Source: Butyrivibrio sp. CAG:318
GTDB lineage: Bacteria > Actinomycetota > Coriobacteriia > Coriobacteriales > Eggerthellaceae
DNA length: 64,000 bases
Reading direction: 5' to 3'
Assembly: GCA_963627055.1 (NCBI GenBank)
Contig: CAVGAF010000003.1
Location: forward strand, 5,177 to 69,176
Made by a program: the position numbers and the translations under genes. The notes beneath the pieces are model-generated. The model saw nothing but the letters and a program-made list of their open reading frames with translations. It made no database searches and had not been told where the DNA came from. This document shows, in pieces, positions 16,580 through 34,686 of this stretch (position 1 is its first letter; each line of letters begins with the position of its first letter).

Positions 16580-16598
16580 AACCTTGGCCGATCTTCCT

Positions 16599-17454: not shown

Positions 17455-18339
17455 CTAGAGCGTGTACAGGGCGTACACCGAAGCACCCATCTGGTAGAAC
17501 ACCACGCGCAGGCAGATGCAGCAGATGACGGCGGCCACGAGGCCCACACCCGCCCACAGCTTCCAGTTGCCGCCCTTCTTCTTGCCCATGTAGGCGCAAG
17601 CGATGGGGATGAGCGCGCAGATGATGGTGGCGATGGTCAGCGGCAGGCTCTGTGCGCCGAACGGCGAGATTGCGCTGATGTCGACCATGCCGGCCGTCGG
17701 CTGCACCGGATCGATGTAGTAGTCGATCTGGGTGAACTGGCTGTTGCTCGCGGCCATGACGATGATGTAGCCGATGCTGGTGACCGCGGCCACGATGGAG
17801 CCGACGAGGTTCGCGCCAACGTTGCTAGCGCTGATCTTGCCTTCCTTGATGTCCTCGATGACGGCGACCGTGGCAGGTCCGAGCACGAACGAGGCGCCGA
17901 GGATGGACAGGATCTCGACCACGTTGTTCCAGGCCGGGCGGGCATCCATCATGTAGGAGTGGCTCATCACCACGTCGAGGATCACCGAGATGGCGATGCC
18001 GCAGACGGCAACCCACTTCGGCACCGAGCCGCCGTCCTCGGAGCGGCGCAGGCACGCCAGGTAGATGATGGCGACGACGCCGAGCACCACGATGGCGATG
18101 AGCTCCTGGGTGATGCCGGAAGTGATGTGGCCGAAGCCGTTGAAGATGCGCTCCCAGTGCTCCAGGTGCAGAAATACCGAGATACCCGATATCACCAAAA
18201 GCAGTGCGGCGACGATCCAGCAGGTAAGCTGGCTTTTCTTGCCTTCGCCTTTAAACGCCAGGTAACTCTGCGTGCCGAACACGCCGACGCACCAGGCCGC
18301 GAAGGTGGTGAAAAGGATAAGGGGCCATTGCAGTTCCAT
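17455..18339 (-). CDS. DmsC-type membrane anchor subunit of the molybdoenzyme
   Basis: MELQWPLILFTT N-terminus, SVFLHLEHWERIFNGF..ITSGITQE; about 8 hydrophobic segments; third gene of the operon. Confidence 0.85.
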   Translation of the reverse strand: MELQWPLILFTTFAAWCVGVFGTQSYLAFKGEGKKSQLTCWIVAALLLVISGISVFLHLEHWERIFNGFGHITSGITQELIAIVVLGVVAIIYLACLRRSEDGGSVPKWVAVCGIAISVILDVVMSHSYMMDARPAWNNVVEILSILGASFVLGPATVAVIEDIKEGKISASNVGANLVGSIVAAVTSIGYIIVMAASNSQFTQIDYYIDPVQPTAGMVDISAISPFGAQSLPLTIATIICALIPIACAYMGKKKGGNWKLWAGVGLVAAVICCICLRVVFYQMGASVYALYTL

Positions 18340-18342: not shown

Positions 18343-19005
18343 TTACTCCTTTCCTTGCCATTCGCGATCGCGAAGCAGGTAGCACACGTGCGGGCCGTTG
18401 CCCACGTCGGTGAGGTGATAGATGTCGTCGGCGGTATAGGGCTCCACCCATTCCTTCAAGGTCGTGCGGTTGTGCAGCATGTCGTCATACGACGTCGCCT
18501 TGTCGTGGGTGGGCGCCGGCGCCTCGAAGGTGTCGATGCCCTTCTCCAGATCGCCGAAGAAGCGGGCACGCGAGCCGCATTGCGCGACGCACTGGGGAAG
18601 CTCCCCTTGGGCCGTGCGCTGTTCGCACAGGGTGCACTTCTCCACGACGCGCTCCTCCTCGTTGAGGTAACGCACGCCGTAGGGGCAGGCCATGGCGCAG
18701 AACTGGCAGCCGATGCACTTCGACTTGTCGATCTGCACGGTGCCGTCGGCCACCACGTGGCTGGCCTGCGTGGGGCACACGGCCACGCACTTGGGGTTCT
18801 CGCAGTGCTGGCACTGGATGGGCAGGAAGTACATGGTCACGTCGGGCCATGCCCCCGACTTCCCCGTGATGGGGAACGGGCCGATGCGCAGGGTTTTGAT
18901 CCAGAAGTCGCCGGGCTGCACGCCGTTGATGGTTTTGCAGGCCGTCGAGCAGGCCAGACAGCCCGTGCAACGGTTCAGGTCGGTGATGATTGCATACTTG
19001 GTCAT
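18343..19005 (-). CDS. 4Fe-4S dicluster electron-transfer subunit (DmsB/NrfC-like)
   Basis: CTGCLACSTAC, CQHCENPKCVAVCP, CIGCQFCAMACP, CTLC...CVAQC motifs. Confidence 0.92.
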   Translation of the reverse strand: MTKYAIITDLNRCTGCLACSTACKTINGVQPGDFWIKTLRIGPFPITGKSGAWPDVTMYFLPIQCQHCENPKCVAVCPTQASHVVADGTVQIDKSKCIGCQFCAMACPYGVRYLNEEERVVEKCTLCEQRTAQGELPQCVAQCGSRARFFGDLEKGIDTFEAPAPTHDKATSYDDMLHNRTTLKEWVEPYTADDIYHLTDVGNGPHVCYLLRDREWQGKE

Positions 19006-19006: not shown

Positions 19007-22000
19007 TTAGATCACGCTCCCGGTGCCGGTATGGGTCCAAGACTCAACCTCGGGCTCGCCCTCCACACGGCTGCGCATGCCGACCTTCATCCACTTGCGC
19101 AGGCGCTCGTCGGATGCGTCATGGATGCATTCCTCGCCGGTGTAGGGGTTGCAGGGCACGGGGTTGCCGAACGGGCTGTTTTCAGCCGTTGCCTTGTAGA
19201 TGACGACCGGATAGCCGCGCATCGTATGGCAGCCGCCGACGGCGTCCTGGCCATACGGGTCGTTCAGACAGTTCACGCCGACCAGCTCGAAGCCGTGCGC
19301 GGCGTATTCGAACTCGGGGAACCACCACTGGTGGTTGGCGTTGGATACGGGCAGGTTGTTGGCGAAGGTGCCGCCGGTGGTGCGGGCCTTCACGGCGTAG
19401 TACAAATCGACGACCTCGCGGATGCGGCCCCAGGGGCTTTCGATCCACACCCAGTCGCCCTGCTCAAATCCCAGGCGCTTGGCCTCCTCGGGGTTGATCT
19501 CCACGCGCGGGACCGGCCACAGCTCGCGGCACCAGGGAAGCTGACGGTGCTCGGAGTGGAAGTAGACGGGCTGGCGAGAGCCGGTGGTCTGCAGGAAGAC
19601 GTTGTCCGGGTACTTCTTGATGGCGTCCTTGTACCACTGGTTCTGGAAGTAGTCGTCGGGAACCTGGTCGATCTTGTCGGCCTGGTACAGCTCCGGCATC
19701 AGCACCGGGGAGTCGGTCGCCTCGCGGTAGATCGGGAAGCGGTCGTCGTCGCCCTGGAAGGCGGCGATGTCGGTGTGCGCCCAGCGGGCATCGCCCTTAA
19801 AGCCGTTCTCCTTGAACTCGTTGCCGTCGTACAAGGTGCCCTCATCGCCTGCGTTGCAGATGTAGGCCTCGCAGGTCAGCGACCAGATTTCGATGAGCGA
19901 GGAAGCGGTGGCGAAGCCGGGCTTCAAGTCAACCAGCGGGAACAGGTTGAAGCCGCCCTGCTGACGACGCCAGCCCATCTCGTGGCGACGATAGGTGCCC
20001 CAGCGCTCCGGATGCCACTCGCGGCAGTCCATCCAGCCGTGCTCGGTGAACCATTCCTTGGCCTGCGCCCAGGTGGGGCCGTCCGGGAATTTCTCGGTCT
20101 TCCAGGCATCGACGTTGTCCTTCAGGATGCGGTCATGGTCGGGCCACAGGTAGGAAACCTTGCCGGCCAGCGCGTCGGTGTATTCCTGGCCGAGCGACTT
20201 GGTCCACTTGTCGATGTTGGTCTGGCTGGAAACCTTCGGCTTGAGCATGTAGTCCTCGCTCGAGCCGGTGGCCGAGAGGTCCTTCGTGTTCCACGGCACG
20301 CCCATGGCGCGGTACATCGCGCAGTTCCAGTCGGGGTCGTAGATGGTGTCGCCCGGGGCCTCGATGGCCTTGCAGCAGCAGCCGAACATGCCGCCTGCGC
20401 CCTGCGAGACGCGGGTGGAGTCGATCTCCATCCAGTGCTGGCAGGGGAAGATGACGTCGGCGTTGCCGTTGGTGGGCATGAACCACAGGTTGATCTCGGT
20501 GAAGAAGTCCATTTGGGCCATGCCGTTCCAGGCGCGCACGGTGTTGGCCATGTTCATGACGTCGCCGGACTGGCACACGCCGCCGTGGATGGCGTAGAGC
20601 GTGGGCTTGACATGCATGTCGAAGGGCTCGTCATGCAGCACGTCCTTGAGCACCTGCGCCTTTTCCCAATCCGGGTCCTGCAGGCAGCCGTCCCAGGCGG
20701 TGTTGGCGTCGCACCAGCGGGCCCAGAAGCGGTTGAGCGGGAAGCGGTCGGCGTCGACCATCGACGCCTGACGCGTGAAGATGGACTTCGGGTTGGGGTA
20801 GTACGCGGAGTTGTACATCGCGCCGCCCATGCGCTTGGCGATGATGATGGCTTCCTCGTCGGTGGGGACGTGGTTGCCGTAGCGCTCGGCAAGCGGGGAC
20901 TTCTCGTCGATGAGGTACTGCACGAAGTCCTGCATGTACTTGCCGACTTCCTGCAGGGTGTAGTCGCGGCCGTCCCACGTGATGCGCTGGTCCTCGTCGT
21001 AGGCGGAAGACTTCTGCATGTTGGAGCGGCCCGGGTTGCCGTCGAACTGGCTCTTGCACGAACCGCGGTTGCCGGCCGGCTCGTCGGAGTTGCCGGTGAT
21101 GCAGGAGAGGATCTGCAGGGTGCGGCAGTTCTGGATGGAGTTGCCGTTTTGGTCGGTGGCCAGCTGGAAGTGGACGCCGCCGTTGCCGTGGCGCGGGTCG
21201 ATGCGGGTCGTGTAGTGCTTGACGGCGGTTTCGACCTTGGACCATTCCACGCCGGTGACCTCGGTCACCTTTTCGGGCGTGTACTGGCTGGTCAGGTCAT
21301 GGAAGCCATCCCATACGGTACGGCACTTGTACTTCTTGCCGTCGATGAGCTCGACCTCGATCTCGCCGGGGAACAGCGCGGGCTTCTTCGGCAGGCCCTT
21401 CGGGTTGGTCGTGGCGCCCTTCTCGTTGCCCGCATCCCAGTAGGAGTCGTAAGCGGCGTCGGCCGGGTCTGCCCAGGTGGACTCGTCGGGCAGCCAGCAG
21501 TCGGCGATGAGGCCCGTTAGGGGATGCTTGATGAAGCTGCCGGTGGTCGGGATCTTCGACGTTTCGCCCTCCCACTTGCAAACTTGGGAATCCCACCAGG
21601 TCAGACGCTGGTTGTTCTCGTCCCACACCATGAAGCGGTGGACCGAGCCGCCTTCCTTGATATCTGCCTCGGTGATGATCTTCGTGCGCATGTCGATGCC
21701 GCCGTTGCCTTCCCAGCGACGCGCCGTGGTCAGCCACGGTTTATCGTCGCAGTACAGGAAGGTGGCGTTCGACCAGCGGCGAACCATCGTGTCGTCGTAG
21801 GCCTCGTTTTCGATGATCCAGTTGATCATGCCCAAGGCCAGCGCGCCGTCGGTGGAGGGGCGCAGGTTCAGCCAGCAGTCGGCTTCCTTCGAAATCGGCG
21901 TCATGCGCGGATCGACGACGATATGGTAGTCGGCGTGCGCGCGCACGTCGGAGATGGTGCGGTTGGTGGTGTCGTAGTTGGAATACTCGACCGCGGTGCC

Positions 22001-22645
22001 CCACTGCAGGTACACTTTCGGCTCGGCCTCGACTTCCATCCACGGCGAGCCCATTTCGTCGGTCATGATGCCGGCCCAGTGGCGCGGGCCCTTGCACACC
22101 TGGTAGGCCAGATGAGCGTTCGGCGTGCCGAAGAGTTGCTTCATGCCCTGGTAGGGGCCAAGCGACCACACGCGGGAGGTGCCGCACATGACGATGATGG
22201 ACTGTCCGCCGTACTTGTCGACGCACTCGCCTAAGCCCTTGCCGACGAGCTCGAAGGCCTCGTCGAGCGTGATGCGCACCCAGCCGGGGTCGGCGACGCC
22301 CTTCGGGTTCGTGCGCTTGACGGGGTAGCGCAGGCGGTCGGGATGGTAGGCGGCCTGCATGGACGACTGCGACTTCGCGCAGCAATGGCCACGGGACTGC
22401 GGGGCGCTCTCGTCGCCCTCGACCTTGATGGCTTTGCCGTCCTGGACGGTGACCCACACGCCGCATTCGACCTTGCCGCAGGCGCGGCAGCAGGTGCGGA
22501 CATGCTTGATCTCGCCCGTCGTGGTGGTGGTCGTCTCGGCAAGGGCCTTCATGGGAGCGGTCACCGAAGCGCTGACGGCGCAAGCGGCGCCGCAAGCCGC
22601 GGCGGCAGCGATGAAGCTGCGACGTGACATGGTTAGCTGTGCCAT
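19007..22645 (-). CDS. Tat-exported bis-MGD molybdopterin oxidoreductase catalytic subunit (DMSO reductase superfamily; Eggerthellaceae catechol-dehydroxylase-like)
   Basis: Tat motif SRRSFIAA; Fe-S motif CCRACGKVEC...HCC; YHPDRLRYP; VCKGPR candidate Mo-ligand Cys; C-terminal TTGSRQPVYFHSEHRQ, VEINP; start ATG 22645 after AAAGGTGA. Confidence 0.9.
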   Translation of the reverse strand: MAQLTMSRRSFIAAAAACGAACAVSASVTAPMKALAETTTTTTGEIKHVRTCCRACGKVECGVWVTVQDGKAIKVEGDESAPQSRGHCCAKSQSSMQAAYHPDRLRYPVKRTNPKGVADPGWVRITLDEAFELVGKGLGECVDKYGGQSIIVMCGTSRVWSLGPYQGMKQLFGTPNAHLAYQVCKGPRHWAGIMTDEMGSPWMEVEAEPKVYLQWGTAVEYSNYDTTNRTISDVRAHADYHIVVDPRMTPISKEADCWLNLRPSTDGALALGMINWIIENEAYDDTMVRRWSNATFLYCDDKPWLTTARRWEGNGGIDMRTKIITEADIKEGGSVHRFMVWDENNQRLTWWDSQVCKWEGETSKIPTTGSFIKHPLTGLIADCWLPDESTWADPADAAYDSYWDAGNEKGATTNPKGLPKKPALFPGEIEVELIDGKKYKCRTVWDGFHDLTSQYTPEKVTEVTGVEWSKVETAVKHYTTRIDPRHGNGGVHFQLATDQNGNSIQNCRTLQILSCITGNSDEPAGNRGSCKSQFDGNPGRSNMQKSSAYDEDQRITWDGRDYTLQEVGKYMQDFVQYLIDEKSPLAERYGNHVPTDEEAIIIAKRMGGAMYNSAYYPNPKSIFTRQASMVDADRFPLNRFWARWCDANTAWDGCLQDPDWEKAQVLKDVLHDEPFDMHVKPTLYAIHGGVCQSGDVMNMANTVRAWNGMAQMDFFTEINLWFMPTNGNADVIFPCQHWMEIDSTRVSQGAGGMFGCCCKAIEAPGDTIYDPDWNCAMYRAMGVPWNTKDLSATGSSEDYMLKPKVSSQTNIDKWTKSLGQEYTDALAGKVSYLWPDHDRILKDNVDAWKTEKFPDGPTWAQAKEWFTEHGWMDCREWHPERWGTYRRHEMGWRRQQGGFNLFPLVDLKPGFATASSLIEIWSLTCEAYICNAGDEGTLYDGNEFKENGFKGDARWAHTDIAAFQGDDDRFPIYREATDSPVLMPELYQADKIDQVPDDYFQNQWYKDAIKKYPDNVFLQTTGSRQPVYFHSEHRQLPWCRELWPVPRVEINPEEAKRLGFEQGDWVWIESPWGRIREVVDLYYAVKARTTGGTFANNLPVSNANHQWWFPEFEYAAHGFELVGVNCLNDPYGQDAVGGCHTMRGYPVVIYKATAENSPFGNPVPCNPYTGEECIHDASDERLRKWMKVGMRSRVEGEPEVESWTHTGTGSVI

Positions 22646-23055: not shown

Positions 23056-24879
23056 ATGAAACTGCCGCACGTTACCATCGAATACCGCGACGAGGAGTCG
23101 GCCGGCGTCGGCAAGATCTCGCCGTCGCTCATCGTCGGCTTCGGCCTGCATTGGGCTTGGATCTTCTCGGCGGTGTTCAGTTCGAACCTTATTTTCCCAT
23201 TTTGGTGGCCCGCCGCCTCTTCGGCGGTGATGATCGGGTCCATGGTGTTCATGGCGGCCACGCTTCTGTGCTACTCGCTTTTCTTCAAGCACGTTCGCCC
23301 GCTGTTCCAGACAATGGGCGATCGGCGTCGCGTGCGCCTGTTCGGGGCGAGCTTGGCTTCAGCGGGGACGCTCGCGGTTGCGCTCGGTGCGGCCGCAACA
23401 CCCCATGCCGTTTGCCTGATCGTCGTCCTTTTCGGCGGGGTTCTCACGGGTGTCGGCACTGCGGTGCTGCTCATGAGCTATGGCGTGTCGTTTTCCGTAT
23501 GCGACACGGCTGCGGCCGCCATGCAGTTCGCCCTGTCCATGGTGGTCGCCTGCTCGGCGTATGCGTTCATTTTGGTGGTTGATACGTTCGCGCATCCAGT
23601 GGGCATGATTTTGTGCATCGTCGTGCCGTGGCTCGAGCTTCTGTGCCTGAATTTGTGCTCCAAGCAGCTTGTGGACCGCACGGAGTTCACGGCGAGCATG
23701 ATGCCCGTGCGTGCGGGGCAGTTCACCTTGTATGTCGCGCCGTCCGCCTTCGCCTTCGGCCTGCTCTTCGGCTTTTTGGGCATCCATGCGTTTCGCGACG
23801 TGGCCGACCTTGCGCTGTCCCCGGGGGCGTTTATCACGGCGGTCGTGGCCGGCGGCGTTTTGGTGTGCCTGCTCGTGGTATGCGTGATGCTCACCCAGCG
23901 CCAGCAGGCGAATTACGCCTTCCGCACGTTGAATCCCATCATCGCCCTCGTCATCGCCGTGGTCGCCTATCTCGTGCCCGAGGGCTCCACCATGACGGTC
24001 CACTGCCTGTTCTTGGTTTCCTACATGCTTATCGAGGCGAGTCTGTGGATATCGTTTTCCGACATGTCGCAGAAGTTCCGCATCAGCCCGTTTCGCGTCT
24101 TCGGCGTCGGGCGCGGTTTCCTTGCTGCAGGCGCGGTCGTCTCCACCGTGCTCATGTTGCCGGGAAGCCCCCTTGCCGCTGCGCTGAACAGCACGGATTC
24201 CATCCTGCCCATCGCGCTGGTGTTGCTCGTGTTCGCCACCAGCAGCTACCCGCGCGACCCCGAGATCATCCGCGTGCTCGTGCGCGGGCACGTCTGCCCC
24301 GCGTTCTTCGACCCGCTCGATATCATGAATCCCTCGACAAAGGTCGTCGCGGCGGCCGCCTGGGAAGTTGAATCCACCGCGGCTGCGCGCGGCGCGGCAG
24401 GTGGGGAATCTGTTGGCGAGAAGGGTACCGCCGGCGACGTCGGTGTTGGGGCTGCCGAGGTTGCCGGCGCGGGCGAAAAGCCTGTGGTCGGCTGTGCTGC
24501 GGATGACTCCGGGGCCGCCCCGGCTTGCGCCCCCGATGCCCCCGGCGTGCCTGGTGCCTCCGGCGCGCCCGACGGTGCCGGCAAGGTTAAGGCCGCCGTC
24601 GGCGCGGAGGACGGCGAGCAGGATGAGCAGCGTATCGGGCGTTACAAGCGCCGCTGCTTGGCGCTTGCCGACATGTGCCTGCTCTCGCGCCGCGAAACCG
24701 AGGTGCTGTTCCTTTTGGCCAAGGGGTACAACACCAAGATGATCCAGGAGCAGCTCTACATTTCGGCCGGCACGGCCAACACGCATATGCGCCATGTCTA
24801 CCGCAAGCTCGACGTGCATTCCCAGCAGGACCTCATCCGCATGGTCGATTCCATCGAGGTAGCCGACGAGCAGTGGTGA
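23056..24879 (+). CDS. Membrane-bound (multi-TM) LuxR-family one-component transcriptional regulator
   Basis: About 12 hydrophobic segments followed by LSRRETEVLFLLAKG...LYISAGTANTHMRHVYRKLDVHSQQDL HTH; divergent from the Mo enzyme. Confidence 0.9.
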   Translation: MKLPHVTIEYRDEESAGVGKISPSLIVGFGLHWAWIFSAVFSSNLIFPFWWPAASSAVMIGSMVFMAATLLCYSLFFKHVRPLFQTMGDRRRVRLFGASLASAGTLAVALGAAATPHAVCLIVVLFGGVLTGVGTAVLLMSYGVSFSVCDTAAAAMQFALSMVVACSAYAFILVVDTFAHPVGMILCIVVPWLELLCLNLCSKQLVDRTEFTASMMPVRAGQFTLYVAPSAFAFGLLFGFLGIHAFRDVADLALSPGAFITAVVAGGVLVCLLVVCVMLTQRQQANYAFRTLNPIIALVIAVVAYLVPEGSTMTVHCLFLVSYMLIEASLWISFSDMSQKFRISPFRVFGVGRGFLAAGAVVSTVLMLPGSPLAAALNSTDSILPIALVLLVFATSSYPRDPEIIRVLVRGHVCPAFFDPLDIMNPSTKVVAAAAWEVESTAAARGAAGGESVGEKGTAGDVGVGAAEVAGAGEKPVVGCAADDSGAAPACAPDAPGVPGASGAPDGAGKVKAAVGAEDGEQDEQRIGRYKRRCLALADMCLLSRRETEVLFLLAKGYNTKMIQEQLYISAGTANTHMRHVYRKLDVHSQQDLIRMVDSIEVADEQW

Positions 24880-24962: not shown

Positions 24963-26249
24963 CTATTCGAACACGGCGGTTTCCATGAGCCAGGCGTGCG
25001 CGCATTGGCGGCGCGCCATGGTCTGCACGATGAACCAGGCGTCGTTGGCCTGGAAGTCGGCCTTCGCTTCCTGCGCATGCCCCGGCGCCAGCTCCTCGAG
25101 CGCGCGGGCGATGTCGTCATCGTCGAGCTCCATGCCCAGATGCTCGAACAGCGCATCGAGCGCCAGCCCCTGGCGAAGCGACTCGCGGGCCTGCATCATC
25201 ACCTGCATCCCCAGCTGCTGGGTGTCCATCCCGTTTGCGGCGGCGAACTGTTCAAGCGTCATGTCCTGCGCGGCGGCGTTTTGGCGCATGGCCTCGGTCA
25301 TGTCGGCCGCCGCGCGCTCGACGAGCGCGTCGGGGATGGCGGCGAGCAGGCGGCTGCCCAGCTCCTCGTCGGCCAGCTCCTCACGCTGGCGCACTCCGGC
25401 TTCGCCGTCTTTCGACCTTAGGTAGGCGGCGACGCGCGCACGGAATTCCTCGACGGTCTTGTCGTCCTCAGACAGGCGCGTGCGCACGAATTCGTCGGTC
25501 AACTCCGGCACGATGCGGCGACGTTTGTCCACCAAATCGACTGCGACCTGGTAATGGACCACTTCTCCGGTGCTTTCCAGGTTGTCGAAGGAAAATTCGC
25601 GATGCTCGCCGACGTTCATGCCGACGACGCCGTTGACAAAACCAGCCGGCATGAGGTCGCCCGAAAGCACGATGGCCAACCCGTCTCCGGAAAGCCCCAT
25701 TTCAGGGGCGCCGTTTGCCAGGGTGGAGAGGTTGACCTGCAGGCAGTCTCCCTCGCTTGCGGGCCCTTCTGCCTCCTCGTAGGTGGCGAAACGGTTCATC
25801 TCCTTGGCGACCTGCGCGTTAATCTGTTCCTCGGTCACCTCGGCGGCAGGCACGTGCAGGTAGACGGGCTCGTAGGAGGAAAGCTTTGCCTCCGGGCGCA
25901 CGAAGACCTCGGCATCGATAACGGCGTCGCGTTTGTCGAGCAGCCCCGGGATGGTCTTGCCCGCAGGTTCGGGGTTGTACATGATGTCGAGCGCCTGCTC
26001 GCGCACGGCGGGAAGGGCCAGGCGCAGGCAGACGTAGGAGGCCATGCACGCCTCGACCGTATCGGTTCCAAATTGGCCGCAGAGCGCCTCGTACAGGTCG
26101 GCCTCGCCAGCTTCCGTGTTCGTCCCGCGCGCCATGATCTGCAGGCTTTCGCGGGCAAGGGCGCTTTTATGCGCCCCGGTGATGGAGAAGCGCAGGCGAA
26201 CCTTAGAATCCTTTTCCATTGCATCCGTGCTGATCAGCTTGATGGACAT
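24963..26249 (-). CDS. Trigger factor paralogue (FKBP-like + C-terminal domain, divergent N-domain)
   Basis: EVTEEQINAQV, GDCLQVNL, MPAGFVNGVVGMNVGE, PELTDEFV, typical trigger factor length (428 aa); GFRxGxxP motif absent. Confidence 0.8.
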   Translation of the reverse strand: MSIKLISTDAMEKDSKVRLRFSITGAHKSALARESLQIMARGTNTEAGEADLYEALCGQFGTDTVEACMASYVCLRLALPAVREQALDIMYNPEPAGKTIPGLLDKRDAVIDAEVFVRPEAKLSSYEPVYLHVPAAEVTEEQINAQVAKEMNRFATYEEAEGPASEGDCLQVNLSTLANGAPEMGLSGDGLAIVLSGDLMPAGFVNGVVGMNVGEHREFSFDNLESTGEVVHYQVAVDLVDKRRRIVPELTDEFVRTRLSEDDKTVEEFRARVAAYLRSKDGEAGVRQREELADEELGSRLLAAIPDALVERAAADMTEAMRQNAAAQDMTLEQFAAANGMDTQQLGMQVMMQARESLRQGLALDALFEHLGMELDDDDIARALEELAPGHAQEAKADFQANDAWFIVQTMARRQCAHAWLMETAVFE

Positions 26250-26276
26250 GTGCGTCTCCTTGCGGTTTTGGGCGCC

Positions 26277-27479
26277 TTAGCGCTCGTATACCTGGTCGGT
26301 CTTGCAGAGGCTTTGCTGGATATGCCAGATGGTGTGCGCCTGCCCGCGTTTGATGGCCAGCGGCTTCATCTCGTAGGCGTCGGTGGCGCCGGCGAACATC
26401 TCGCGTGCGAACACCTCGTCGGAGATGCTGATGGCCCCTGCAGGGCATATTTTCTCACAAGTGCGGCACTTCACGCAGTCCCCGGGGTAGTGCTCCACGC
26501 CGAACGGCTCGCCCGAATCGTCGTCCTCGCCGAACTTGCGCAGCGCGCCCGTTGGGCAGAACACCGCGCACATGCGGCAGGACTGGCACGCGTCGGTGTC
26601 GATGATGACGTGCCCCCACAGCCGCGTGTCGATCATGACATCGTCAGGGTCGCCGAAGGTCGCCAGTGCGTCGAGCAGGCGCGCGCGGCGGTCGGGCAGA
26701 AAGTGGGGGAGCGTGCCGTCGGCCATGACCTTGACGTAGTTCTTCGTCTTCTGCGGGCTGAATCCCTCGCCGGTGATCTCGGCCGCGGCCGCGCCGGCCA
26801 AAACGCCGCCGATACGCGCGGCTTCACGGCCGCCCTCCTCGAAGGCGTGGCGCTTCGATTTGTCGAAATCCCCGCCGTCTTTCTTGCGCGTGCAGCCGGG
26901 AAGCTTGCCCGAGGTGCGCGCCCCCATGGGTTGCCCCCAGGCTTTAAGCAGGGTTTCCTCAGTTGCAAGCACGTCTTGCAGCATCTTCCAGCCGCTTGCG
27001 TGCTCGCAGGTGCCGCAGGCTCCGTGGACGAGCACCACGGAGGCGCCCTCGCTCTGCAAAAGCGTGAGCAGCGACTCCTCCACGCGCCCGAGGCATTCCA
27101 CGGCGACGACCGCGTCTTCGTCGTAGAGGCCGCGCACCTGCGAGAGCATCTGCGCGCAGGCGATGGTGACGGTGCCCGCGCACGCGGCCGCAGCAGCGCG
27201 GGCACGTTCGATCATCTCGGTGTCGTTGGGATGGTGCGCTTCCAAACAGCACGTGGGGCAGACGGTGGCGCATGTGCCGCAGCCGATGCACTTTTCGGGC
27301 GAGACGATAAGCTGCTCGGCCGCCTCATCGTAGCGGATGCATCCCGACGTGCACACCTGCGAGCAGCGCAGGCAGTCGGCGTGGCGGTTGCGCACGAGCG
27401 CGCAGCGGTCTTGGTGGACGGTGATATAGGGGCTGTCGACCTTTTCGATCAGCCCGAGCATGTTGGCGACGCTTGGCAT
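26277..27479 (-). CDS. Multi-cluster 4Fe-4S binding protein
   Basis: CLRCSQVC, CIGCGTCATVCP, CQSCRMCAVFCP, CVKCRTCEKICP; start ATG 27479 after GGGGGAG. Confidence 0.85.
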   Translation of the reverse strand: MPSVANMLGLIEKVDSPYITVHQDRCALVRNRHADCLRCSQVCTSGCIRYDEAAEQLIVSPEKCIGCGTCATVCPTCCLEAHHPNDTEMIERARAAAAACAGTVTIACAQMLSQVRGLYDEDAVVAVECLGRVEESLLTLLQSEGASVVLVHGACGTCEHASGWKMLQDVLATEETLLKAWGQPMGARTSGKLPGCTRKKDGGDFDKSKRHAFEEGGREAARIGGVLAGAAAAEITGEGFSPQKTKNYVKVMADGTLPHFLPDRRARLLDALATFGDPDDVMIDTRLWGHVIIDTDACQSCRMCAVFCPTGALRKFGEDDDSGEPFGVEHYPGDCVKCRTCEKICPAGAISISDEVFAREMFAGATDAYEMKPLAIKRGQAHTIWHIQQSLCKTDQVYER

Positions 27480-27644
27480 GGCTCCCCCCTTGCTTGAAAT
27501 GAGCGCATATGAGCCTTGAACTGCGCTTTTCCCTATCATAAGCGCTTTTTCGCAACCAAAATCATAGGGCTGATATTATTGTGCGCCGCTGTGTGCTCAT
27601 ATACTCCGAAACGACGAGGGGATACATTTCGAAGGAGGAGGCAT

Positions 27645-28496
27645 ATGGCTTTGATCAGACCGTCTTTGACGCTGGTGCTCGACTTGGACGAGAGACAGGC
27701 GCAGGAAGAGACGCAGCTTGAACTCAAGCGCTGCTATACCTACATTACGGCGCCGATCGTGCGCAAGCATGCGCCCGAGGATGCGGACGCGCCCGTGAGC
27801 AACACGGCGCGCGCCATCGTGAATTTCGGGACGCGCAACTACCTGCATTCGGCCGACGAGGGAGCTGACGAGCTGTGGGACGGCATCGTCGAGCAGTGGC
27901 TCGGCAACATCCTGCATAAGGTCGGTTCCACGATGAAGGCGTTCAACCGCCGTCAGCGCTCAATCGGGCTGCCCGAGGTCATTTTCGACAAGTTCGACAT
28001 CGAGCTTGCTGGCGGTGAATTCACGGTGAGCCTGCATCCCGATTTGCTCGGGTTCGTGCCCGAGGAACTCAACGCCGCCATCACCCTGGCGCGCTCGCTG
28101 CTCAACGACGGCACCTTCGCCGGCGCGGTGCGCGTGCGGATCCCGGCCGACGAGTCGTATGCCGCGCAGCAGGAAAGCGCTCGGGCGGCATGGGATGAGA
28201 CCCATCCCGAAGAGAACGAACCGGAAGCGGCCCCGTCGCCAAGCGAGGCCGTCTCCGCGCCCGAGGTCGACTATGAAAGCGAGGAATGGCTGGCCTATGA
28301 CCGCGAGCGCAAGAGCTACGAGCGCACCGCGGTGCCCATCACCGATTCCGACGAGCTGCCGCCCATTGTGCGCGAAGAGGAGCCCGAGCCGCCCGAGCCG
28401 TTCTCCTTTGAGGTCGACTACACCGTCTGGGGAGTCGTCTACGCAGACGGCACGAACCGGCGCTTCGATTCGTCGGCGCTCGCGTTTTCGGAGTAG
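27645..28496 (+). CDS. Hypothetical acidic protein
   Basis: GGAGGAGG RBS before ATG 27645; host-like codon usage; first gene of the plus-strand accessory operon. Confidence 0.75.
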   Translation: MALIRPSLTLVLDLDERQAQEETQLELKRCYTYITAPIVRKHAPEDADAPVSNTARAIVNFGTRNYLHSADEGADELWDGIVEQWLGNILHKVGSTMKAFNRRQRSIGLPEVIFDKFDIELAGGEFTVSLHPDLLGFVPEELNAAITLARSLLNDGTFAGAVRVRIPADESYAAQQESARAAWDETHPEENEPEAAPSPSEAVSAPEVDYESEEWLAYDRERKSYERTAVPITDSDELPPIVREEEPEPPEPFSFEVDYTVWGVVYADGTNRRFDSSALAFSE

Positions 28497-28500
28497 CGCC

Positions 28501-29376
28501 ATGCCTTCGACGACGGGAAAGACGGGCGCAGGCGTGGCGTGCGAGAGCATGTTCGTGAAATGGGAGACTCCCGAAGAGGAGCTCGCCTCCACTGCGCGCC
28601 TTGCCGAGGCGTTCGTGCATCGCCATATCGACGAGGCGAACGACCTGGCCATCGCGGTGCCGAACATGGCCTGGGCCGTGCAGGCGCGCCGCGCATGTGC
28701 CGCGGCCGGCCTTCCCGCTTCGATTCGCGCGCCGCGCACCCACGTAAGCGCAGCGACGAAAAGCAGGCTTTCCCTGCTCGAGGCGCTGGCAAACCCCGAA
28801 GACGAGCGCCTGCGGCGGCAGTGGGAGGATGCGGGGCGGCCCGCGGGAAAGCTCGACGAGCTTGTTGCGCGCTACGGCTCCTCGCGCGCCTCGGCGCTCA
28901 TCCGCCTGTGCGACTTATCCGCCTGTCCCGAGCTCGAGCATGGGCTTCTGCATGTCTGCGGCGACGAGGACGCGGTACGCCTGCTTTCCATCATCGATGA
29001 GCAGCTTGAGCGCCCGACCTCTCCGGAAGGCTTGCAGGTGGCGTCGATCGTGTTGCTTTCGAACCTGTCTAAGGCTTATGCGCAGCTGTTCGTCGTCGGC
29101 TGCGTCGAGGGCCTTCTCGACGCAGCCGACGAGGCGACAAGGCGGGCGTTTCTCGGCGCGGCGGGGCATGCGACCAGGCGCCTGTACTATTCGGGCTTCG
29201 CGAAGGCCGATCTTGCCCTGGCGAAATCGGCGCACCTCGCCTACGCCCGCACCCGGCGCGAGGGGGAGCGCGAGATGGCGCTGTGCCGGGTAAGCCCGCT
29301 TTTCGCCGACTTCGGCGCCGCGCGTCCCTCGACGCTTGGCGGCCAGGTGCTTCTGCGCACCTACCAACTGAATTGA
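28501..29376 (+). CDS. Degenerate UvrD/PcrA C-terminal-half-like protein
   Basis: LFVVGCVEGLL and RRAFLGAAGHATRRLYYS resemble SF1A motifs V/VI; C-terminus resembles that of ORF 32791-34686; start uncertain (28501 or 28549). Confidence 0.6.
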   Translation: MPSTTGKTGAGVACESMFVKWETPEEELASTARLAEAFVHRHIDEANDLAIAVPNMAWAVQARRACAAAGLPASIRAPRTHVSAATKSRLSLLEALANPEDERLRRQWEDAGRPAGKLDELVARYGSSRASALIRLCDLSACPELEHGLLHVCGDEDAVRLLSIIDEQLERPTSPEGLQVASIVLLSNLSKAYAQLFVVGCVEGLLDAADEATRRAFLGAAGHATRRLYYSGFAKADLALAKSAHLAYARTRREGEREMALCRVSPLFADFGAARPSTLGGQVLLRTYQLN

Positions 29377-29397
29377 CATACCCGCAAGGAGGACATC

Positions 29398-30312
29398 ATG
29401 GCGGATTTCGATTTGAAGAATTTCTCGTTCAACGTCGACGAGGGCTCGTTTAATTTCGGCGGGCCCGAGTCGATGGACGAGGGGGATGCCGATCCGGGCA
29501 TCTTCCTGCCCAACACCGAGGGGCGCACCGAATTTCTGCCGCCCGACGCTGAGCGCGTTCCCAAGATCCCGGGCGTCGTGGACAACGAGTCGGACGCCTA
29601 CGCCGCTCGCCCGGCGGCCGAGCGCACCTCGGAGTTGTTCAACAACATGAACCCGCACCGCCGCGTGCTGTACGGCGTGCTGCGCGCGATGAACGAGCCC
29701 TTAAACGATGAGGCGGCCGATGAGGCCATCGAGGCCCTGCGCGCCCACAAGTTCTCGGTGTATTCCCCGGCCGACATCTGCACGATGCTCGCCGCCGCCG
29801 GCGCCATCACGCGGGTGCTTGCCGACGGCACCCCCTACGAGGAGTTCGAGCCCGAGCCGAAGATCGTCGTCATCGACGGCGTGGAGTATTGGGAGGCCCA
29901 GCCCGCCCCCGAGCATTTCTGGCAGATCAGCGATGCGGGCCGCGCCCAGCTGGCGTCCTACGACCCTGCCGAGAAGCTCGCCGAGCAGCTTGCCCGCGAA
30001 CCGGAATACGCCAAGCTCTACAAGCGCATTTTGGTGCTGGGCTGCGAAGAGGGCGGCAAGACCATGAAGCAGTTCTCGGCCGCCGTCGATAACGACCCGC
30101 TGGTGGCCACCGAGCCACGCAGCTTCTTCGTGCAGCATTTCGTCGAGGCGCTTGAGCGTTGCGAGGCCGTCGCCTGGTTCGGCAGCACGTGGAAGACGAC
30201 CGATACGGGCCGCGCGGCGCTTGCCGGCGAGCTTTCCGAGGTCGTTGACGACTACGTTTTCGATGAGGGGGCGCAGCCTGCGCAGACCGAGACCGACGGC
30301 GTGAACTGGTAG
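29398..30312 (+). CDS. Hypothetical protein with two putative winged-helix-like repeats
   Basis: AAGGAGG RBS; repeated pattern LAAAGAI...WQISDAGRAQL and LERCEAV...WKTTDTGRAAL. Confidence 0.65.
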   Translation: MADFDLKNFSFNVDEGSFNFGGPESMDEGDADPGIFLPNTEGRTEFLPPDAERVPKIPGVVDNESDAYAARPAAERTSELFNNMNPHRRVLYGVLRAMNEPLNDEAADEAIEALRAHKFSVYSPADICTMLAAAGAITRVLADGTPYEEFEPEPKIVVIDGVEYWEAQPAPEHFWQISDAGRAQLASYDPAEKLAEQLAREPEYAKLYKRILVLGCEEGGKTMKQFSAAVDNDPLVATEPRSFFVQHFVEALERCEAVAWFGSTWKTTDTGRAALAGELSEVVDDYVFDEGAQPAQTETDGVNW

Positions 30313-30324
30313 GAGGGGCAGAAC

Positions 30325-31077
30325 ATGACGGACGTGAACAACGTGCCCGAGACGGGCGTGGAGGAACTGATCAGCATCAACGAGGGCCGCGCGAAGACCT
30401 ACGGGCTTCTCGCGCGCCTGTACCGCGAGGAGGCCACCCAGGAGCTCATCGACGAGCTGTACGGCCTGCATTGGCGCGTGAGCACCGGAAACGCGGCGCT
30501 CGACCGCGGCCACAAGCTCATCGCGACATGGCTTTCCGGCCTGTGGCGCAATTCGGCCACGGAGCTTTCCGCCGACTACATGCGGACGTTTTTCGGCCAC
30601 GGGTATTCCGGCCACGCGGCGGCATACCCCTTCGAGAGCGTCTACGCGTCGGAGAAGCGCCTGCTCATGCAGGGTGCGCGTGACGAGATTCTGGCGCTGT
30701 ACCGCTCTGCCGGCCTGGACAAGCAGGCAAGCTGGAAGGAGGGCGAGGACCATATCGCGCTGGAGCTGGAATACATGCAGGTGCTCATCACCCGCACCGT
30801 GGACGCCTTGCGCGCCGACGAGGGCGAAGAAGCGTATCGCCTGGTGAAGTGCCAGCTGAACTTCATGGAAGACCATCTGGGCGCCTGGGCGCCGCTTCTC
30901 ACCGCCCAAATGCGCGGTTTCTGCAAGACGAAGTTCTACGAGGGCCTGTCCTGGATGACCGACGGCTTTTTGGAAGTGGACACGGCGCTGATGGAAGACA
31001 TGCTCTCCGACGACGATGGCGAGGACGAGGACGGCGAGGCGGGCGAGACGGCTGCGGCTTCGCAAGACGGCGAATAG
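30325..31077 (+). CDS. TorD/DmsD-family redox enzyme maturation chaperone
   Basis: YPFESVY, EDHIALELEYM and FMEDHLGAW motifs; AGGAGG RBS. Confidence 0.9.
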   Translation: MTDVNNVPETGVEELISINEGRAKTYGLLARLYREEATQELIDELYGLHWRVSTGNAALDRGHKLIATWLSGLWRNSATELSADYMRTFFGHGYSGHAAAYPFESVYASEKRLLMQGARDEILALYRSAGLDKQASWKEGEDHIALELEYMQVLITRTVDALRADEGEEAYRLVKCQLNFMEDHLGAWAPLLTAQMRGFCKTKFYEGLSWMTDGFLEVDTALMEDMLSDDDGEDEDGEAGETAAASQDGE

Positions 31078-31165
31078 GAGCTCGCACGCCGCGCGAGGCG
31101 GCGTGGCGGGCCTAAGGGTTGTCGGGCGCGAAAGGACGACCGGCGAAACAGCAAGGGGGATTGGT

Positions 31166-31807
31166 ATGGCAGAAGAAGGTAAGACGTACGCGGGCATGTC
31201 CCGCCGTGCGTTCGCCTTGGGCACGGGAGGGGCGGTCGTGCTTTTGGCCCTCGGCGGCCTGAAGGCGACTCCGGCTGCGGCGCAGGTGCGCCCGCCGGGA
31301 GGTCAGGACGAGGATCACGTGATCTCCGCCTGCGTTCGCTGCGAGCGGTGCGTGGAGGCGTGCCCGCGCGGTGCGCTGCGCCCCTCGCATATCGAGGAGG
31401 GCATCTTGGGCACGCGCCTGCCCGCCGCGAACTTCGACGTCGCGTACTGCGATTTCTGCACCGAGGAAAACGGCGGCGTGCCCCTGTGCGTGGCGGCGTG
31501 CCCGACCCGCGCGCTTAAGCTCGACGCAGGCGCCACGCCCCAGAACACCATCATCGGCAAGGCGGTGCTCAAAGGGGACTGGTGCTTGGCGTGGAACCGC
31601 TACAACGGTTGCCGCTTCTGCTACGACGCCTGCCCCTACGAGGCCATCACGCTCGACGAGCACCAGCGCCCCGTCGTGCACAACGACAAGTGCAACGGGT
31701 GCGGCGCATGCCAGGCGGCATGCGTGTCGCTGCAGGAGGGCTCGATCGTCGAGGGCGCCACGTCGCGCGCCATCACGGTCCGCCCGCTTGACGAGGTCGA
31801 GGGCTAG
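31166..31807 (+). CDS. Tat-exported NapG/MauM-like ferredoxin
   Basis: SRRAFALG Tat motif; VRPPGG; CVRCERCVEACP, CDFC..CVAACP, CRFCYDACP, CNGCGACQAAC. Confidence 0.87.
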   Translation: MAEEGKTYAGMSRRAFALGTGGAVVLLALGGLKATPAAAQVRPPGGQDEDHVISACVRCERCVEACPRGALRPSHIEEGILGTRLPAANFDVAYCDFCTEENGGVPLCVAACPTRALKLDAGATPQNTIIGKAVLKGDWCLAWNRYNGCRFCYDACPYEAITLDEHQRPVVHNDKCNGCGACQAACVSLQEGSIVEGATSRAITVRPLDEVEG

Positions 31808-31816
31808 GGGGATGTC

Positions 31817-32767
31817 ATGAATTTGAAAACGCTTCGCATCATCGTGCCCCTTGCCGTCCTTTTGCTAGCGGCAGTGGGCTTCGTGTTCCATACCGGCTTC
31901 GGCGACCTGTCCGCGGTGGGCTGGTCGTCCATATCGGTGCTGTGCCCCCTAGGCGCGCTCGGCACCATGCTCGCCAGCAAGACGGTGGTCCCGCATGCGG
32001 TCATCTCGCTGATCATCGCCCTTGTTGCCATCGTCTTGCTTGGCCGCGCGTTCTGCGGATGGATCTGCCCGGTCCCCGTCATCTCGAAGCTGCGCCATGC
32101 CTTCTCGCGTCCCGAGCACGTCAAGGCCGCGAAGAAGGCCGCATCCGCCGGCGCCGGCGACGACGGGCATGCCGCAGGCGCCGACGGGGCCAAGCCGCTC
32201 ACAGACAAGGAGAAGGCGCTGCTCAAGGGCGCATGCAGCCACCATGCGTGCAAGCCCGGCTGCGAGCCGAGCAACTCGCGCAATATCGTGCTCGGCGGCG
32301 CGCTGCTTTCCGCGGCCATCTTCGGGTTCCCGGTATTCTGCCTCGTATGCCCCATCGGCCTTGCGTTCGCGCTCGTGTTCGTGCTCATCGCCTTGTTCGG
32401 GTCGGGCGACGTCACCTGGTCGGTCGTCGTCATCCCGGTGCTGCTGGCTGTGGAAGTGGTGTTCTTCCGCAAATGGTGCAGCCATATCTGCCCGCTGTCG
32501 GCCTTGATGAGCCTGGTGGGCAAGCTCAACCGCACCTTCCGCCCGCAGGTTGACGCAGGCGCGTGCGTCGAGACGAAGACCGGGCATCATTGCGGCAAGT
32601 GTGCACGGGTCTGCGAGCAGGGCATCGACCCGCGCCATCCCGAGCTGGGCGCGTCGTGGAGCGAATGCACGCGTTGCGGCGCGTGCATCAAGGCCTGCCC
32701 GGGAGACGCCATCAAGCTCGCCGCGCTGGTGCGCGAGGGGAAGAGCCTCGCGGAGCGTGAGGATTAA
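31817..32767 (+). CDS. NapH/MauN-like membrane 4Fe-4S protein
   Basis: GRAFCGWICP, FCLVCPIG, WCSHICPL, CGKCARVC, CTRCGACIKACP; several TM segments. Confidence 0.87.
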   Translation: MNLKTLRIIVPLAVLLLAAVGFVFHTGFGDLSAVGWSSISVLCPLGALGTMLASKTVVPHAVISLIIALVAIVLLGRAFCGWICPVPVISKLRHAFSRPEHVKAAKKAASAGAGDDGHAAGADGAKPLTDKEKALLKGACSHHACKPGCEPSNSRNIVLGGALLSAAIFGFPVFCLVCPIGLAFALVFVLIALFGSGDVTWSVVVIPVLLAVEVVFFRKWCSHICPLSALMSLVGKLNRTFRPQVDAGACVETKTGHHCGKCARVCEQGIDPRHPELGASWSECTRCGACIKACPGDAIKLAALVREGKSLAERED

Positions 32768-32790
32768 AGGCGCAAAGGGGGAGAGGGCGC

Positions 32791-34686
32791 ATGGTTGACG
32801 AGAGGGAAGGCTCGGGCTTGCCGGCTGCGGCTGACGCGCCCGGCAAGGGCGATTTCTTCAGCGACGTCGAGGCGTCTTGCTACGTCGGCCCGGCGAATTC
32901 CGGGCGTACGCGGCACTTGGTCGAGGTCGCGCGCCAGCAGACGCACGCCGGCTCGCGCGTGCTGTTCGTGTGCGCAACCTCCGCCGCCGCCAGGTGTGTG
33001 CGTGAGGCGACCTCGGGCATGCCTGCGGTGACGGTGACGACGTTTCCCCAGATGGCGATTAAGGTTCTTTCGACGACTGAGGGGCGTGGGGCCTTTGGGC
33101 GCGCACCCCGTATCCTCGATCCCCACGAGCAGGACATCCTCATGGAGGACATGAAGGTCAGCCAGATGAAGAACCGCCGGCTGCGTGCCGTTGCGGGCTA
33201 CCTGTTCGCCGGCTGGAGCAACCTCGCCGACGATGCATGGGAACAAACCTACGAGGAGGACCTGCTCATCGACCGCCTGCATGCCAACCTGCGCTTTACG
33301 GGCGGCATTTTGGCGTGCGAGGCTTCGAACTTGGCGTTAAAAGTGCTGCGCGCAAATCCCGACGTTCGCCGACGCCTTTCCTGCGACTGCGTGGTCGTTG
33401 ACGACTTCGACCTTGCCAGCCGCGCCTCGCAGCATCTTGCGCGTGCGCTTACGGGGCGGCTGCTTGCGGTGAGCGCCGCGCCGTATGCCGCTGCGCCTAC
33501 CGCGCAGGAGCCTTATCCGTGCTTTGCGGGAGTAGAAGAGCTGCTTGCGGACTGCCCGGCCTGCCGCGTCGAGCGGCTCGCCAGCGCCCAGCCCCTCGCT
33601 ATACAGGAGGTCATGCGGCGCCTTCACGCTGAAGACGTTCGCGTGGGTGCCAGTGGCGCTGATCTGGGGCGCGCCGGCAACGGTGTCAATTGCGCTGCCG
33701 AGGATGCCCGTGCCGCCGGGGATGAGGTTTTTGCTGACGGAAGTCCCGCGGCGAGCATTGACGACCTTGCCGCCGATGCGGGCGCGGAGCCCCTCGCCAT
33801 TCGCGTGGAGCCTTCGATGGAGGCCGAACTGCTGTTGATGGCGCAGACCTGCGCAGACGCGCTTTCCCGCGGCGAGGACGTGGCCATCTTCGGTACCGAT
33901 CGCATCTGGCGGCGCAACGTCGTGGCGAACTTGCGCCGCGTCGGCCTGCCCGTGGCAGCGGCGCCCGCCGGCCGCATCAAGGCGCGTGACTTAAACGATG
34001 CGATGACCTGCGCCCGCCTTGAGCGCGACGCGCTCGGCCGCCTTCGGGCGAATCGCGCTGACGGCGTGGCATGGCGAACGCTCGTCGCGCTTGGCGACCA
34101 CGTGGCCCGCAGCGCCGCCCTCGACCGCCTGCGCCGGGCCACGGCCGGAGGGGAGCCCGGCGGCCTGGGCCTGCACGAGGCCCTGGAGGCGCTCTCGCGC
34201 GGAAAAGTGGTATGCGACGATTTGACGCGCCCGCTCCTCGACGACCTGCTCGCCGCCTACCGCCGCGCTTGCGCCCTCCTCGAGAACTTCGACGATGCCG
34301 GCGCGCCCGATGGCGCCGTCCAGCGCGAAACCGGCACCGAGCGCAGCCCCTCAATCGTGGTGTACCCGGTATCCGCCGCGCCTGAGGTGCGTGCCGACGT
34401 GGCTATTTTCGGCGCCTTTGTCAACGGCTGCATTCCCTGCCGGGCGTACTTCGACCCCGCCGGTCTCGCCGGCGCCGCGCGTGGGCGCGAGGCCTCCGCG
34501 AGCCTGAGGGCTGCCCTCTCCGTCGCCGCCTGCGCGCGTAAGCGGGTATTGTTCTGCGCCTTTTCCGCCTGCGGACTCGATGCGGCCGAAACTATGGACC
34601 TGCATATCGCTTCCATTAAGTTGCGCCGGTCGGTGCGCACGGCCGTCGTCGAGCCGAGCTGCCTGACGGCGGTCATGCAGGGCTGA
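32791..34686 (+). CDS. Degenerate UvrD/PcrA-like SF1A helicase homologue (probable pseudo-ATPase)
   Basis: GPANSGRT (Walker A-like, K>R), VLFVCATSAAA (Ia), VTTFPQMA (Ib), VVVDDFD (Walker B-like, E>D), AIFGAFVNGCIP (V-like), AACARKRVLF (VI-like). Confidence 0.72.
   Translation: MVDEREGSGLPAAADAPGKGDFFSDVEASCYVGPANSGRTRHLVEVARQQTHAGSRVLFVCATSAAARCVREATSGMPAVTVTTFPQMAIKVLSTTEGRGAFGRAPRILDPHEQDILMEDMKVSQMKNRRLRAVAGYLFAGWSNLADDAWEQTYEEDLLIDRLHANLRFTGGILACEASNLALKVLRANPDVRRRLSCDCVVVDDFDLASRASQHLARALTGRLLAVSAAPYAAAPTAQEPYPCFAGVEELLADCPACRVERLASAQPLAIQEVMRRLHAEDVRVGASGADLGRAGNGVNCAAEDARAAGDEVFADGSPAASIDDLAADAGAEPLAIRVEPSMEAELLLMAQTCADALSRGEDVAIFGTDRIWRRNVVANLRRVGLPVAAAPAGRIKARDLNDAMTCARLERDALGRLRANRADGVAWRTLVALGDHVARSAALDRLRRATAGGEPGGLGLHEALEALSRGKVVCDDLTRPLLDDLLAAYRRACALLENFDDAGAPDGAVQRETGTERSPSIVVYPVSAAPEVRADVAIFGAFVNGCIPCRAYFDPAGLAGAARGREASASLRAALSVAACARKRVLFCAFSACGLDAAETMDLHIASIKLRRSVRTAVVEPSCLTAVMQG

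Follow-up and report, generated by a model that had tools for sequence, protein, structure and literature searches.

What do the genes packed beside a molybdoenzyme gene and a LuxR-type regulator gene contribute to that enzyme, and do they form a system of their own? The locus that raises this question lies at positions 24963..34686 of a stretch of 64,000 nucleotides (nt), here called the window, from contig CAVGAF010000003.1 of Butyrivibrio sp. CAG:318 (assembly GCA_963627055.1), which GTDB places in the Eggerthellaceae, class Coriobacteriia. A preliminary description read its nine genes as an undescribed assembly or quality-control module for molybdenum (Mo) enzymes exported by the twin-arginine translocation (Tat) pathway. 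Our comparison indicates that the locus is probably a Senegalimassilia-type version of the Coriobacteriia catechol-dehydroxylase accessory cluster, which would build and wire the adjacent Vadh-like Mo enzyme, with a DadhE-like protein as a predicted co-chaperone of TorD.

The core of such a cluster is already in print. Dong et al. 2025 (PMC11887054), cited throughout from its accessible parts, named dadhD of Eggerthella lenta for a helicase domain, dadhE as hypothetical, dadhF as TorD, dadhG and dadhH as NapG- and NapH-like and dadhI as ferredoxin. These genes were deleted one by one; dopamine dehydroxylase activity was lost on deleting dadhD to dadhH, Dadh expression required dadhD, and AlphaFold3 set DadhE and DadhF each onto the catalytic subunit. 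The dadh genes were located by exact primer matches in genome G112, one of five genomes searched, and six window genes matched DadhD, DadhE, DadhF, DadhG, DadhH and DadhI with 37, 26, 50, 53, 47 and 38% identity, respectively. The order of the E. lenta cadh accessory block was that of the window, with the ferredoxin gene divergent from dadhE-torD-napG-napH-helicase, and this block also adjoined a LuxR gene and the E. lenta vadh gene (product El Vadh); both loci had a membrane LuxR and a Tat-exported Mo enzyme with A, B and C subunits nearby. The set is therefore made up of dadhD-I homologues and three extra genes, which E. lenta dadhD-I does not have: the acidic gene, a half-length second pseudo-helicase (type B, see below) and a trigger-factor paralogue. 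Judged by these homologies, the earlier statement that no described system combines these parts was mostly wrong. In the dadh cluster of G112 (L021:13819-16364), a transposase-like open reading frame (ORF) was inserted in the dadhH homologue.

The genes of the locus and of the adjacent enzyme were as follows (E, expect value; percentages are identities):

17455..18339, minus strand: DmsC-like membrane anchor, subunit C (Pfam DmsC, E 6e-9; 48% to the El Vadh C subunit)
18343..19005, minus strand: 4Fe-4S subunit B, DmsB-like (75% to the El Vadh B subunit)
19007..22645, minus strand: Tat-exported bis-molybdopterin guanine dinucleotide (bis-MGD) catalytic subunit, Vadh-like catechol dehydroxylase of putative substrate (molybdopterin domains, Tat signal; 63% to El Vadh)
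23056..24879, plus strand: membrane-bound LuxR activator of the DadR/HcdR/CadR type (C-terminal GerE helix-turn-helix, hydrophobic N-terminal domain)
24963..26249, minus strand: trigger-factor paralogue without the ribosome-binding motif (Trigger_C and Trigger_N, under the tig cut-off)
26277..27479, minus strand: polyferredoxin, DadhI homologue (Fer4 repeats; 38% to DadhI, E 2e-78; 52% to the cadh-cluster copy)
27645..28496, plus strand: acidic protein of no named family (37% to an hcdh-cluster gene; fixed upstream partner gene of the type-B pseudo-helicase)
28501..29376, plus strand: C-terminal half of a type-B pseudo-helicase (alignment starts at about residue 334 of the full-length copy; dN/dS 0.25-0.34)
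29398..30312, plus strand: DadhE homologue, acidic tandem winged-helix protein, predicted TorD partner (26% to DadhE, E 4e-18; 44% to the cadh-cluster copy)
30325..31077, plus strand: TorD/DmsD-family chaperone, DadhF homologue (Pfam E 9e-32; 50% to DadhF)
31166..31807, plus strand: NapG-like ferredoxin with Tat motif, DadhG homologue (53% to DadhG)
31817..32767, plus strand: NapH-like membrane ferredoxin, DadhH homologue (47% to the C-terminal part of DadhH)
32791..34686, plus strand: full-length type-A pseudo-helicase, DadhD homologue (37% over 199 amino acids to DadhD, E 4e-24)

The two divergent, tightly packed gene sets of the preliminary description were found as it gave them. All nine ORFs from 24963 to 34686 were present on the expected strands, with intergenic gaps of 4, 21, 12, 88, 9 and 23 nt on the plus strand, 27 nt between the trigger-factor and polyferredoxin genes on the minus strand and 165 nt between the divergent sets. 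Purine-rich ribosome-binding sites preceded every gene of the nine except the half helicase, which begins 4 nt past the stop of the acidic gene. The ratio of nonsynonymous to synonymous substitution rates (dN/dS) against two same-genus orthologous loci was 0.05-0.34 for 11 of 11 genes tested, and the nine genes are under purifying selection. Pfam and NCBIfam named the trigger factor, the polyferredoxin, TorD and the NapG- and NapH-like proteins, together with the neighbouring Tat Mo enzyme, iron-sulphur subunit, DmsC anchor and LuxR; neither placed the acidic, half-helicase or winged-helix protein in a family. A promoter and terminator scan stayed at chance level (2 vs 1.6; 11 vs 10.3).

Comparison of the window catalytic subunit with primer-located El Vadh revealed 63% identity; identity was 52% to Hcdh and 35-37% to the five other dehydroxylases compared. 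As El Vadh dehydroxylates catechin-derived dihydroxyphenylvaleric acids, the window enzyme likely acts on a similar substrate. The DadR/HcdR/CadR family, to which the membrane LuxR was assigned, has been described (PMC9734109). On the same strand past the DmsC gene, window positions 14993-17225 held a putative multidrug-type MFS transporter gene and a GNAT-like gene, both labelled from reading the sequence; the transporter may possibly move substrate or product. Positions 38798-43413 held what we take to be a LarB-LarC-like fusion and a gene for a 999-amino-acid M16-type peptidase.

How firmly the unnamed genes belong to Mo-enzyme loci was seen in their distribution. The DadhE-like gene lay directly upstream of torD in all 57 loci found by protein pattern, and of these loci, some of which end at contig edges, 45 had the acidic gene, 44 the polyferredoxin gene, 44 napG, 42 napH and 40 a full-length UvrD-like gene. 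Another 51 short loci, found by profile and overlapping partly with those 57, had torD in 42 cases and a Mo catalytic gene within about 1.5 kilobases (kb) in the other nine. The window genome encoded five DadhE-like proteins and had five TorD matches, and both sets fell on the same five contigs. A sample of 151 genomes from the order contained DadhE in 50. Every one of the 38 genomes with the UvrD-like family also had DadhE, as did 39 of the 41 with the acidic family; such figures describe linkage and should not be read as significance tests, since the genomes are kin and not independent. In a sample of the phylum, DadhE was present in the window's own genome and 6 of 10 genomes of the same family, whereas none of the 290 genomes from other families had it. 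The gene order recurred across many Eggerthellaceae. At its smallest, the unit consists of DadhE and TorD.

A second complete accessory block was present in the window genome (G000:C49:357-8362), with the acidic gene, dadhE, torD, napG, napH and a type-A pseudo-helicase gene. It is followed by a gene that starts with what is presumably a NifH-like P-loop, and at L030 the corresponding block lies near genes that we take to be tatB/tatC-like. Record titles at L121-L124, L149, L168 and L172 gave unrelated taxa (e.g. Prevotella, archaeon) for contigs with Coriobacteriia-type clusters and are apparently unreliable.

The AlphaFold model of the DadhE-like protein (predicted local distance difference test, pLDDT, 85) began with an acidic, disordered N-terminus, followed by two winged-helix repeats of which the first bore a long beta-hairpin wing, in keeping with the tandem winged-helix fold guessed for it earlier. 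Both repeats matched PadR/MarR folds (Z 8-9, root-mean-square deviation, rmsd, of about 3 Å over about 80 residues); Foldseek gave probabilities of 0.95-1.0 but E of 0.02 or weaker. The composition was 18.8% D/E vs 8.2% K/R. An Atlas search with DadhE returned only unnamed Actinomycetota clusters. The neighbouring TorD scored above the Pfam Nitrate_red_del/TorD cut-off (E 9e-32) and below the NCBIfam TorD equivalog cut-off. It shares with the TorD/DmsD/NarJ maturation proteins the family domain and a place beside a Tat-exported bis-MGD enzyme, and differs in a conserved segment (aromatic-x-x-x-TG) that is predicted to bind the winged-helix protein; to our knowledge, classical TorD/DmsD/NarJ chaperones act without such a partner.

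Complex prediction for the DadhE-like protein with TorD, one of the pairings that had been suggested for prediction, was positive. It gave an ipSAE (interaction prediction score from aligned errors) of 0.81, vs 0.00 for the best of three controls, and the runs shared at least 50% of contacts with partner pLDDT of at least 81. In calibration, 116 of 157 pairs with solved complexes attained the ipSAE mark, compared with 2 of 215 mismatched pairs. A sequence search of solved structures with the DadhE-family profile found nothing significant; that the score stems from a memorised structure is less likely because no solved DadhE relative was found by sequence. In the predicted interface, wing residues 151-170 of the DadhE-like protein lay on TorD residues 45-53 and 63-80. 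At the position of Y164, the central wing residue, 55 of 64 torD-adjacent copies had an aromatic residue or Cys and 0 of the 10 others did; none of these 10, which have no torD beside them, had the wing strand. The TorD interface motif occurred in 64 of 65 TorDs encoded next to dadhE and in 1 of 4 TorDs encoded elsewhere; these are counts among kin, which are not independent. DadhE-like proteins are accordingly predicted, from the model, to bind TorD through an extended wing. In the accessible text of PMC11887054, DadhE was given neither a fold nor a TorD contact. A DadhE subfamily lay directly upstream of the Mo catalytic gene instead of torD (L106, L107, L110, L111, L113-L117, L120) and had an acidic segment in place of the wing strand; these wing-less proteins may bind the enzyme directly.

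A profile built from 21 helicase-like family members found UvrD/PcrA structures (E 3e-23 to UvrD). The homology to the superfamily 1A helicases UvrD, PcrA and Rep extended across both RecA-like lobes and domain 2B, and no nuclease domain or C-terminal extension was seen. The window family differs from them in lacking catalytic and single-stranded DNA (ssDNA)-binding residues and in being tied to Mo-enzyme loci. It comprised two types, type A being DadhD-like and type B following the acidic gene. Motifs were counted by alignment to the genome's own PcrA over 59 full-length members (46 of type A and 13 of type B); 32 of the 91 UvrD-like sequences collected were shorter than 520 amino acids and were left out of the counts. 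Walker B read DD in 59 of 59, leaving no catalytic glutamate. The Walker A lysine was retained in 49 of 59 and was Arg in the full-length window copy, and the primer-located DadhD had lost this lysine along with the whole P-loop. Conserved ssDNA-contact and coupling residues of motifs Ia, Ib, III, IVa and V were lost: the motif III glutamine was outside the six commonest residues in type A and present in 3 of 13 type B members. The motif VI arginine was retained in 11 of 59. By these residues the family is catalytically degenerate, as the label of degenerate UvrD-like protein had anticipated. Inactive subunits of helicase families are familiar from RecC and AddB.

Full-length copies of both types surrounded the acidic gene at five loci, and in a quick tree the half gene of the window nested with acid-linked type-B proteins (Shimodaira-Hasegawa-like approximate likelihood-ratio test support 87-91). 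We rejected the idea that the half helicase is a decaying pseudogene, as it was kept in 29 of 57 loci with dN/dS of 0.25-0.34, and the idea that it is the split partner of the full-length window gene, as it grouped with type B. In eight loci it was further shortened, to 141-246 amino acids. In the hcdh cluster of G112 (L025:8643-10578), the type-B gene was split by a frame change near its start.

What the pseudo-helicases do is where the strongest alternative arises. These proteins, perhaps with the winged-helix protein, could be expression factors, that is, non-catalytic binders of DNA, RNA or a regulator whose action allows the enzyme to be transcribed or translated under the membrane LuxR, instead of maturation factors; we consider this quite possible, if short of probable. 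Deletion of dadhD abolished Dadh expression as deletion of the regulator gene dadR did and deletion of the TorD gene did not, a pattern more in line with regulation than with folding, and the authors proposed action on the locus or messenger RNA (PMC11887054). In addition, dadhD stands directly after regulator genes, the 1B region and the C-terminus have conserved basic patches, and the DadhE fold is a classic DNA-binding fold. However, the ssDNA-contact residues listed above are gone, the DadhE-like protein is strongly acidic and predicted to bind TorD, dadhE deletion left expression intact (PMC11887054), and a protein missing from a blot may also have been degraded. What was published for the dadhD deletion speaks for a part in expression roughly as strongly as for stabilisation of the apo-enzyme.

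In each of the 30 best loci, the next gene downstream of the acidic gene was UvrD-like. The E. lenta hcdh cluster likewise had the acidic gene followed by a type-B gene, together with dadhE-torD, napG/H and ferredoxin homologues; it differs in having one full-length type-B copy, another gene order and an enzyme 52% identical to that of the window, and no trigger factor was found within the 20 kb read. In the published hcdh induction table (PMC7028382, supplementary file 2a), tags 02816, 02817, 02819 and 02820 rose by log2 changes of 7.75, 5.8, 6.29 and 6.37, alongside hcdh. Matched by gene order, these are the acidic, type-B, TorD and DadhE genes. The acidic gene and the type-B pseudo-helicase gene are thus a fixed pair, co-induced with hcdh in the available table of that RNA sequencing (RNA-seq) study. 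The model of the acidic protein (pLDDT 87) had no fold match above Z 5.0, which does not imply a new fold. Tautomerase-type beta-alpha-beta proteins led the matches (best Z 5.0, rmsd 3.7 over 97 residues), within the chance range; the invariant Pro of the acidic family is residue 6, whereas the catalytic proline of tautomerases (MIF/4-OT) is N-terminal. A sequence search of solved structures with the acidic-family profile gave nothing significant, and an Atlas search gave a lead to Aq_aa04 that was below recognition and was not used. Distant, mostly longer members of the family occurred without the accessory cluster in several Eggerthellaceae genomes (L255-L262).

The trigger-factor paralogue was motif-less as the preliminary description had it. 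The ribosome-binding motif GFRxGxxP was found only in the genome's tig (the C8 copy), ahead of clpP/clpX-like genes, and the exact pattern was present in none of the 42 non-tig rows examined (the window copy and 41 paralogues). Among orthologous loci of the Vadh type, the trigger factor was in the cluster at 13 of 26 informative loci; four further loci were incomplete and outside the 26. In a quick tree built from 34 of the 43 rows, after removal of eight near-duplicates and a mis-called row, the window copy fell in a 16-member clade of 13 cluster-borne copies and 3 that lie elsewhere in genomes also having the cluster; two outer members also lie elsewhere. In three relatives (G119, G101, G057; L206-L224), trigger-factor paralogues had expanded to 7-9 Trigger_C genes per genome, some of them short forms of 240-325 amino acids. 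In these genomes a Mo-enzyme gene lay no more than 5 kb from 16 of the 20 non-tig copies examined and no more than 1.5 kb from 9 of them, the expectation at 5 kb being about 0.28 from at least 85-89 Mo matches per genome; this enrichment is only suggestive because several loci are shared between genomes and the Mo count is possibly a lower bound. The Mo enzymes beside the paralogues mostly lacked a Tat motif. A core part was rejected for the trigger factor, since it is absent from 13 of the 26 loci, and so was Tat proofreading as its defining role, since most neighbouring Mo enzymes have no Tat motif.

Whether the paralogue serves the Mo enzyme at all may be asked. It could be a passenger, one of many motif-less copies in Eggerthellaceae with no special role for Mo enzymes, which we find conceivable and rather doubtful. 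All 42 non-tig rows lacked the exact motif, including a widespread copy beside an ABC transporter, half of the informative loci did without the gene, and its nearest relatives in five genomes lay elsewhere. Against a passenger, the gene is retained at a dN/dS of 0.15-0.24, 27 nt behind the DadhI homologue, and was in the cluster at two different positions in records named Senegalimassilia, Slackia and Denitrobacterium; other paralogue clades also stood beside Mo enzymes (the 16 of 20 above). The motif-less trigger factor is likely an optional, dedicated extra chaperone. PceT lacks the whole ribosome-binding domain; the window protein differs in keeping that domain and losing only the motif. 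The trigger-factor-like chaperones PceT and RdhT serve reductive dehalogenases, and PceT binds the Tat signal of its client (PMC8905343, from its accessible parts). Likened by this description, they are the nearest precedent for a trigger-factor relative encoded with a respiratory reductase, and differ in that their client is a corrinoid enzyme, whereas many paralogues here lie beside Mo enzymes without a Tat motif. A literature search, subscription papers and theses lying outside it, found no paper linking a trigger factor to these enzymes.

That the UvrD-like proteins are active, unusual helicases or ATPases is very improbable: the Walker A lysine kept by most members and the term predicted helicase for DadhD in PMC11887054 are set against the invariant DD of Walker B, the scarce motif III glutamine and motif VI arginine, the K to R change of the window copy and the absent N-terminal half of its second copy, and helicase activity is very unlikely because the essential member DadhD has no P-loop. 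Nucleotide binding by other members is possible, to judge from their residues.

Besides the dadhD phenotype and the kinship behind the covariation counts, several points weigh against reading the locus as an accessory cluster that builds and wires its enzyme. The experiments concern E. lenta genes and not the organism of the window. In the published host, dadhI and dadhC could each be deleted without effect, which means that some parts are dispensable there, and the published cadh accessory block works without the acidic gene, type-B helicase or trigger factor in the construct (both PMC11887054), although a host could supply these factors, distant acidic-family copies being present alone in other family members. 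The complex score was obtained with our own alignments, to which its calibration counts apply only approximately. DadhE itself is an exception to the covariation, with a divergent wing, and the C20 TorD is a further one. Ten loci (L168-L170, L172-L177) had, beside the enzyme, only DadhE and TorD of the accessory genes, L174 being without a visible enzyme. The five genomes with the closest trigger-factor relatives carry them away from Mo loci, and one of these (G053) had no TorD or DadhE match. Of the assembly and quality-control set first proposed for a Tat-exported Mo enzyme, the dedicated accessory set stands; the trigger factor is neither a fixed part of it nor Tat-specific, and the NapG/H-like proteins and polyferredoxin are more plausibly electron-transfer parts than assembly parts.

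In the accessory cluster as we read it, the membrane LuxR would likely switch on the enzyme when its catechol is present, by analogy with DadR, HcdR and CadR. TorD would likely keep hold of the apo-enzyme, Tat peptide included, until cofactor insertion, as family knowledge and the published AlphaFold3 prediction suggest, and the long wing strand of the DadhE-like protein (151-170) is predicted to be added to TorD residues 45-80. The DadhE-like protein would likely also touch the catalytic subunit (prediction in PMC11887054), making it an adaptor and not a DNA binder. The helicase-like proteins, lacking the catalytic glutamate, would likely be non-catalytic adaptors needed for enzyme accumulation, on protein or nucleic acid. 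Electrons would likely pass from quinol to the B subunit through the NapG/NapH-like proteins and the polyferredoxin, and the motif-less trigger factor would likely be an optional, PceT-like holdase for the folding Mo enzyme. A far-reaching version of this scheme, which we hold to be unlikely as a whole, is a lineage-specific Coriobacteriia maturation machine for DMSO-reductase-family enzymes made from repurposed housekeeping folds: a core heterodimer of TorD and the tandem winged-helix protein, a scaffold of a dead UvrD pair and the acidic adaptor, and client-specific holdases from an expanded family of ribosome-free trigger factors, together the missing parts whose lack would keep gut catechol dehydroxylases inactive in E. 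coli.

The processing of dopamine and dietary polyphenols by gut bacteria is set by catechol dehydroxylases, enzymes that have been hard to express in standard hosts. Their accessory genes were known to be needed, their mode of action was not, and the accessible text of PMC11887054 treats DadhD as a predicted helicase. Beyond the published core, the predicted TorD-DadhE docking, the degeneracy of the helicase family, the acidic/type-B pair and the optional trigger factor are additions made here. The locus offers a predicted interface between TorD and DadhE at residue level, the expectation that DadhD needs no ATP hydrolysis to work, and three more candidates, namely the acidic protein, the type-B pseudo-helicase and the motif-less trigger factor. 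If true, a TorD co-chaperone and an essential dead helicase would extend the textbook account of molybdoenzyme maturation.

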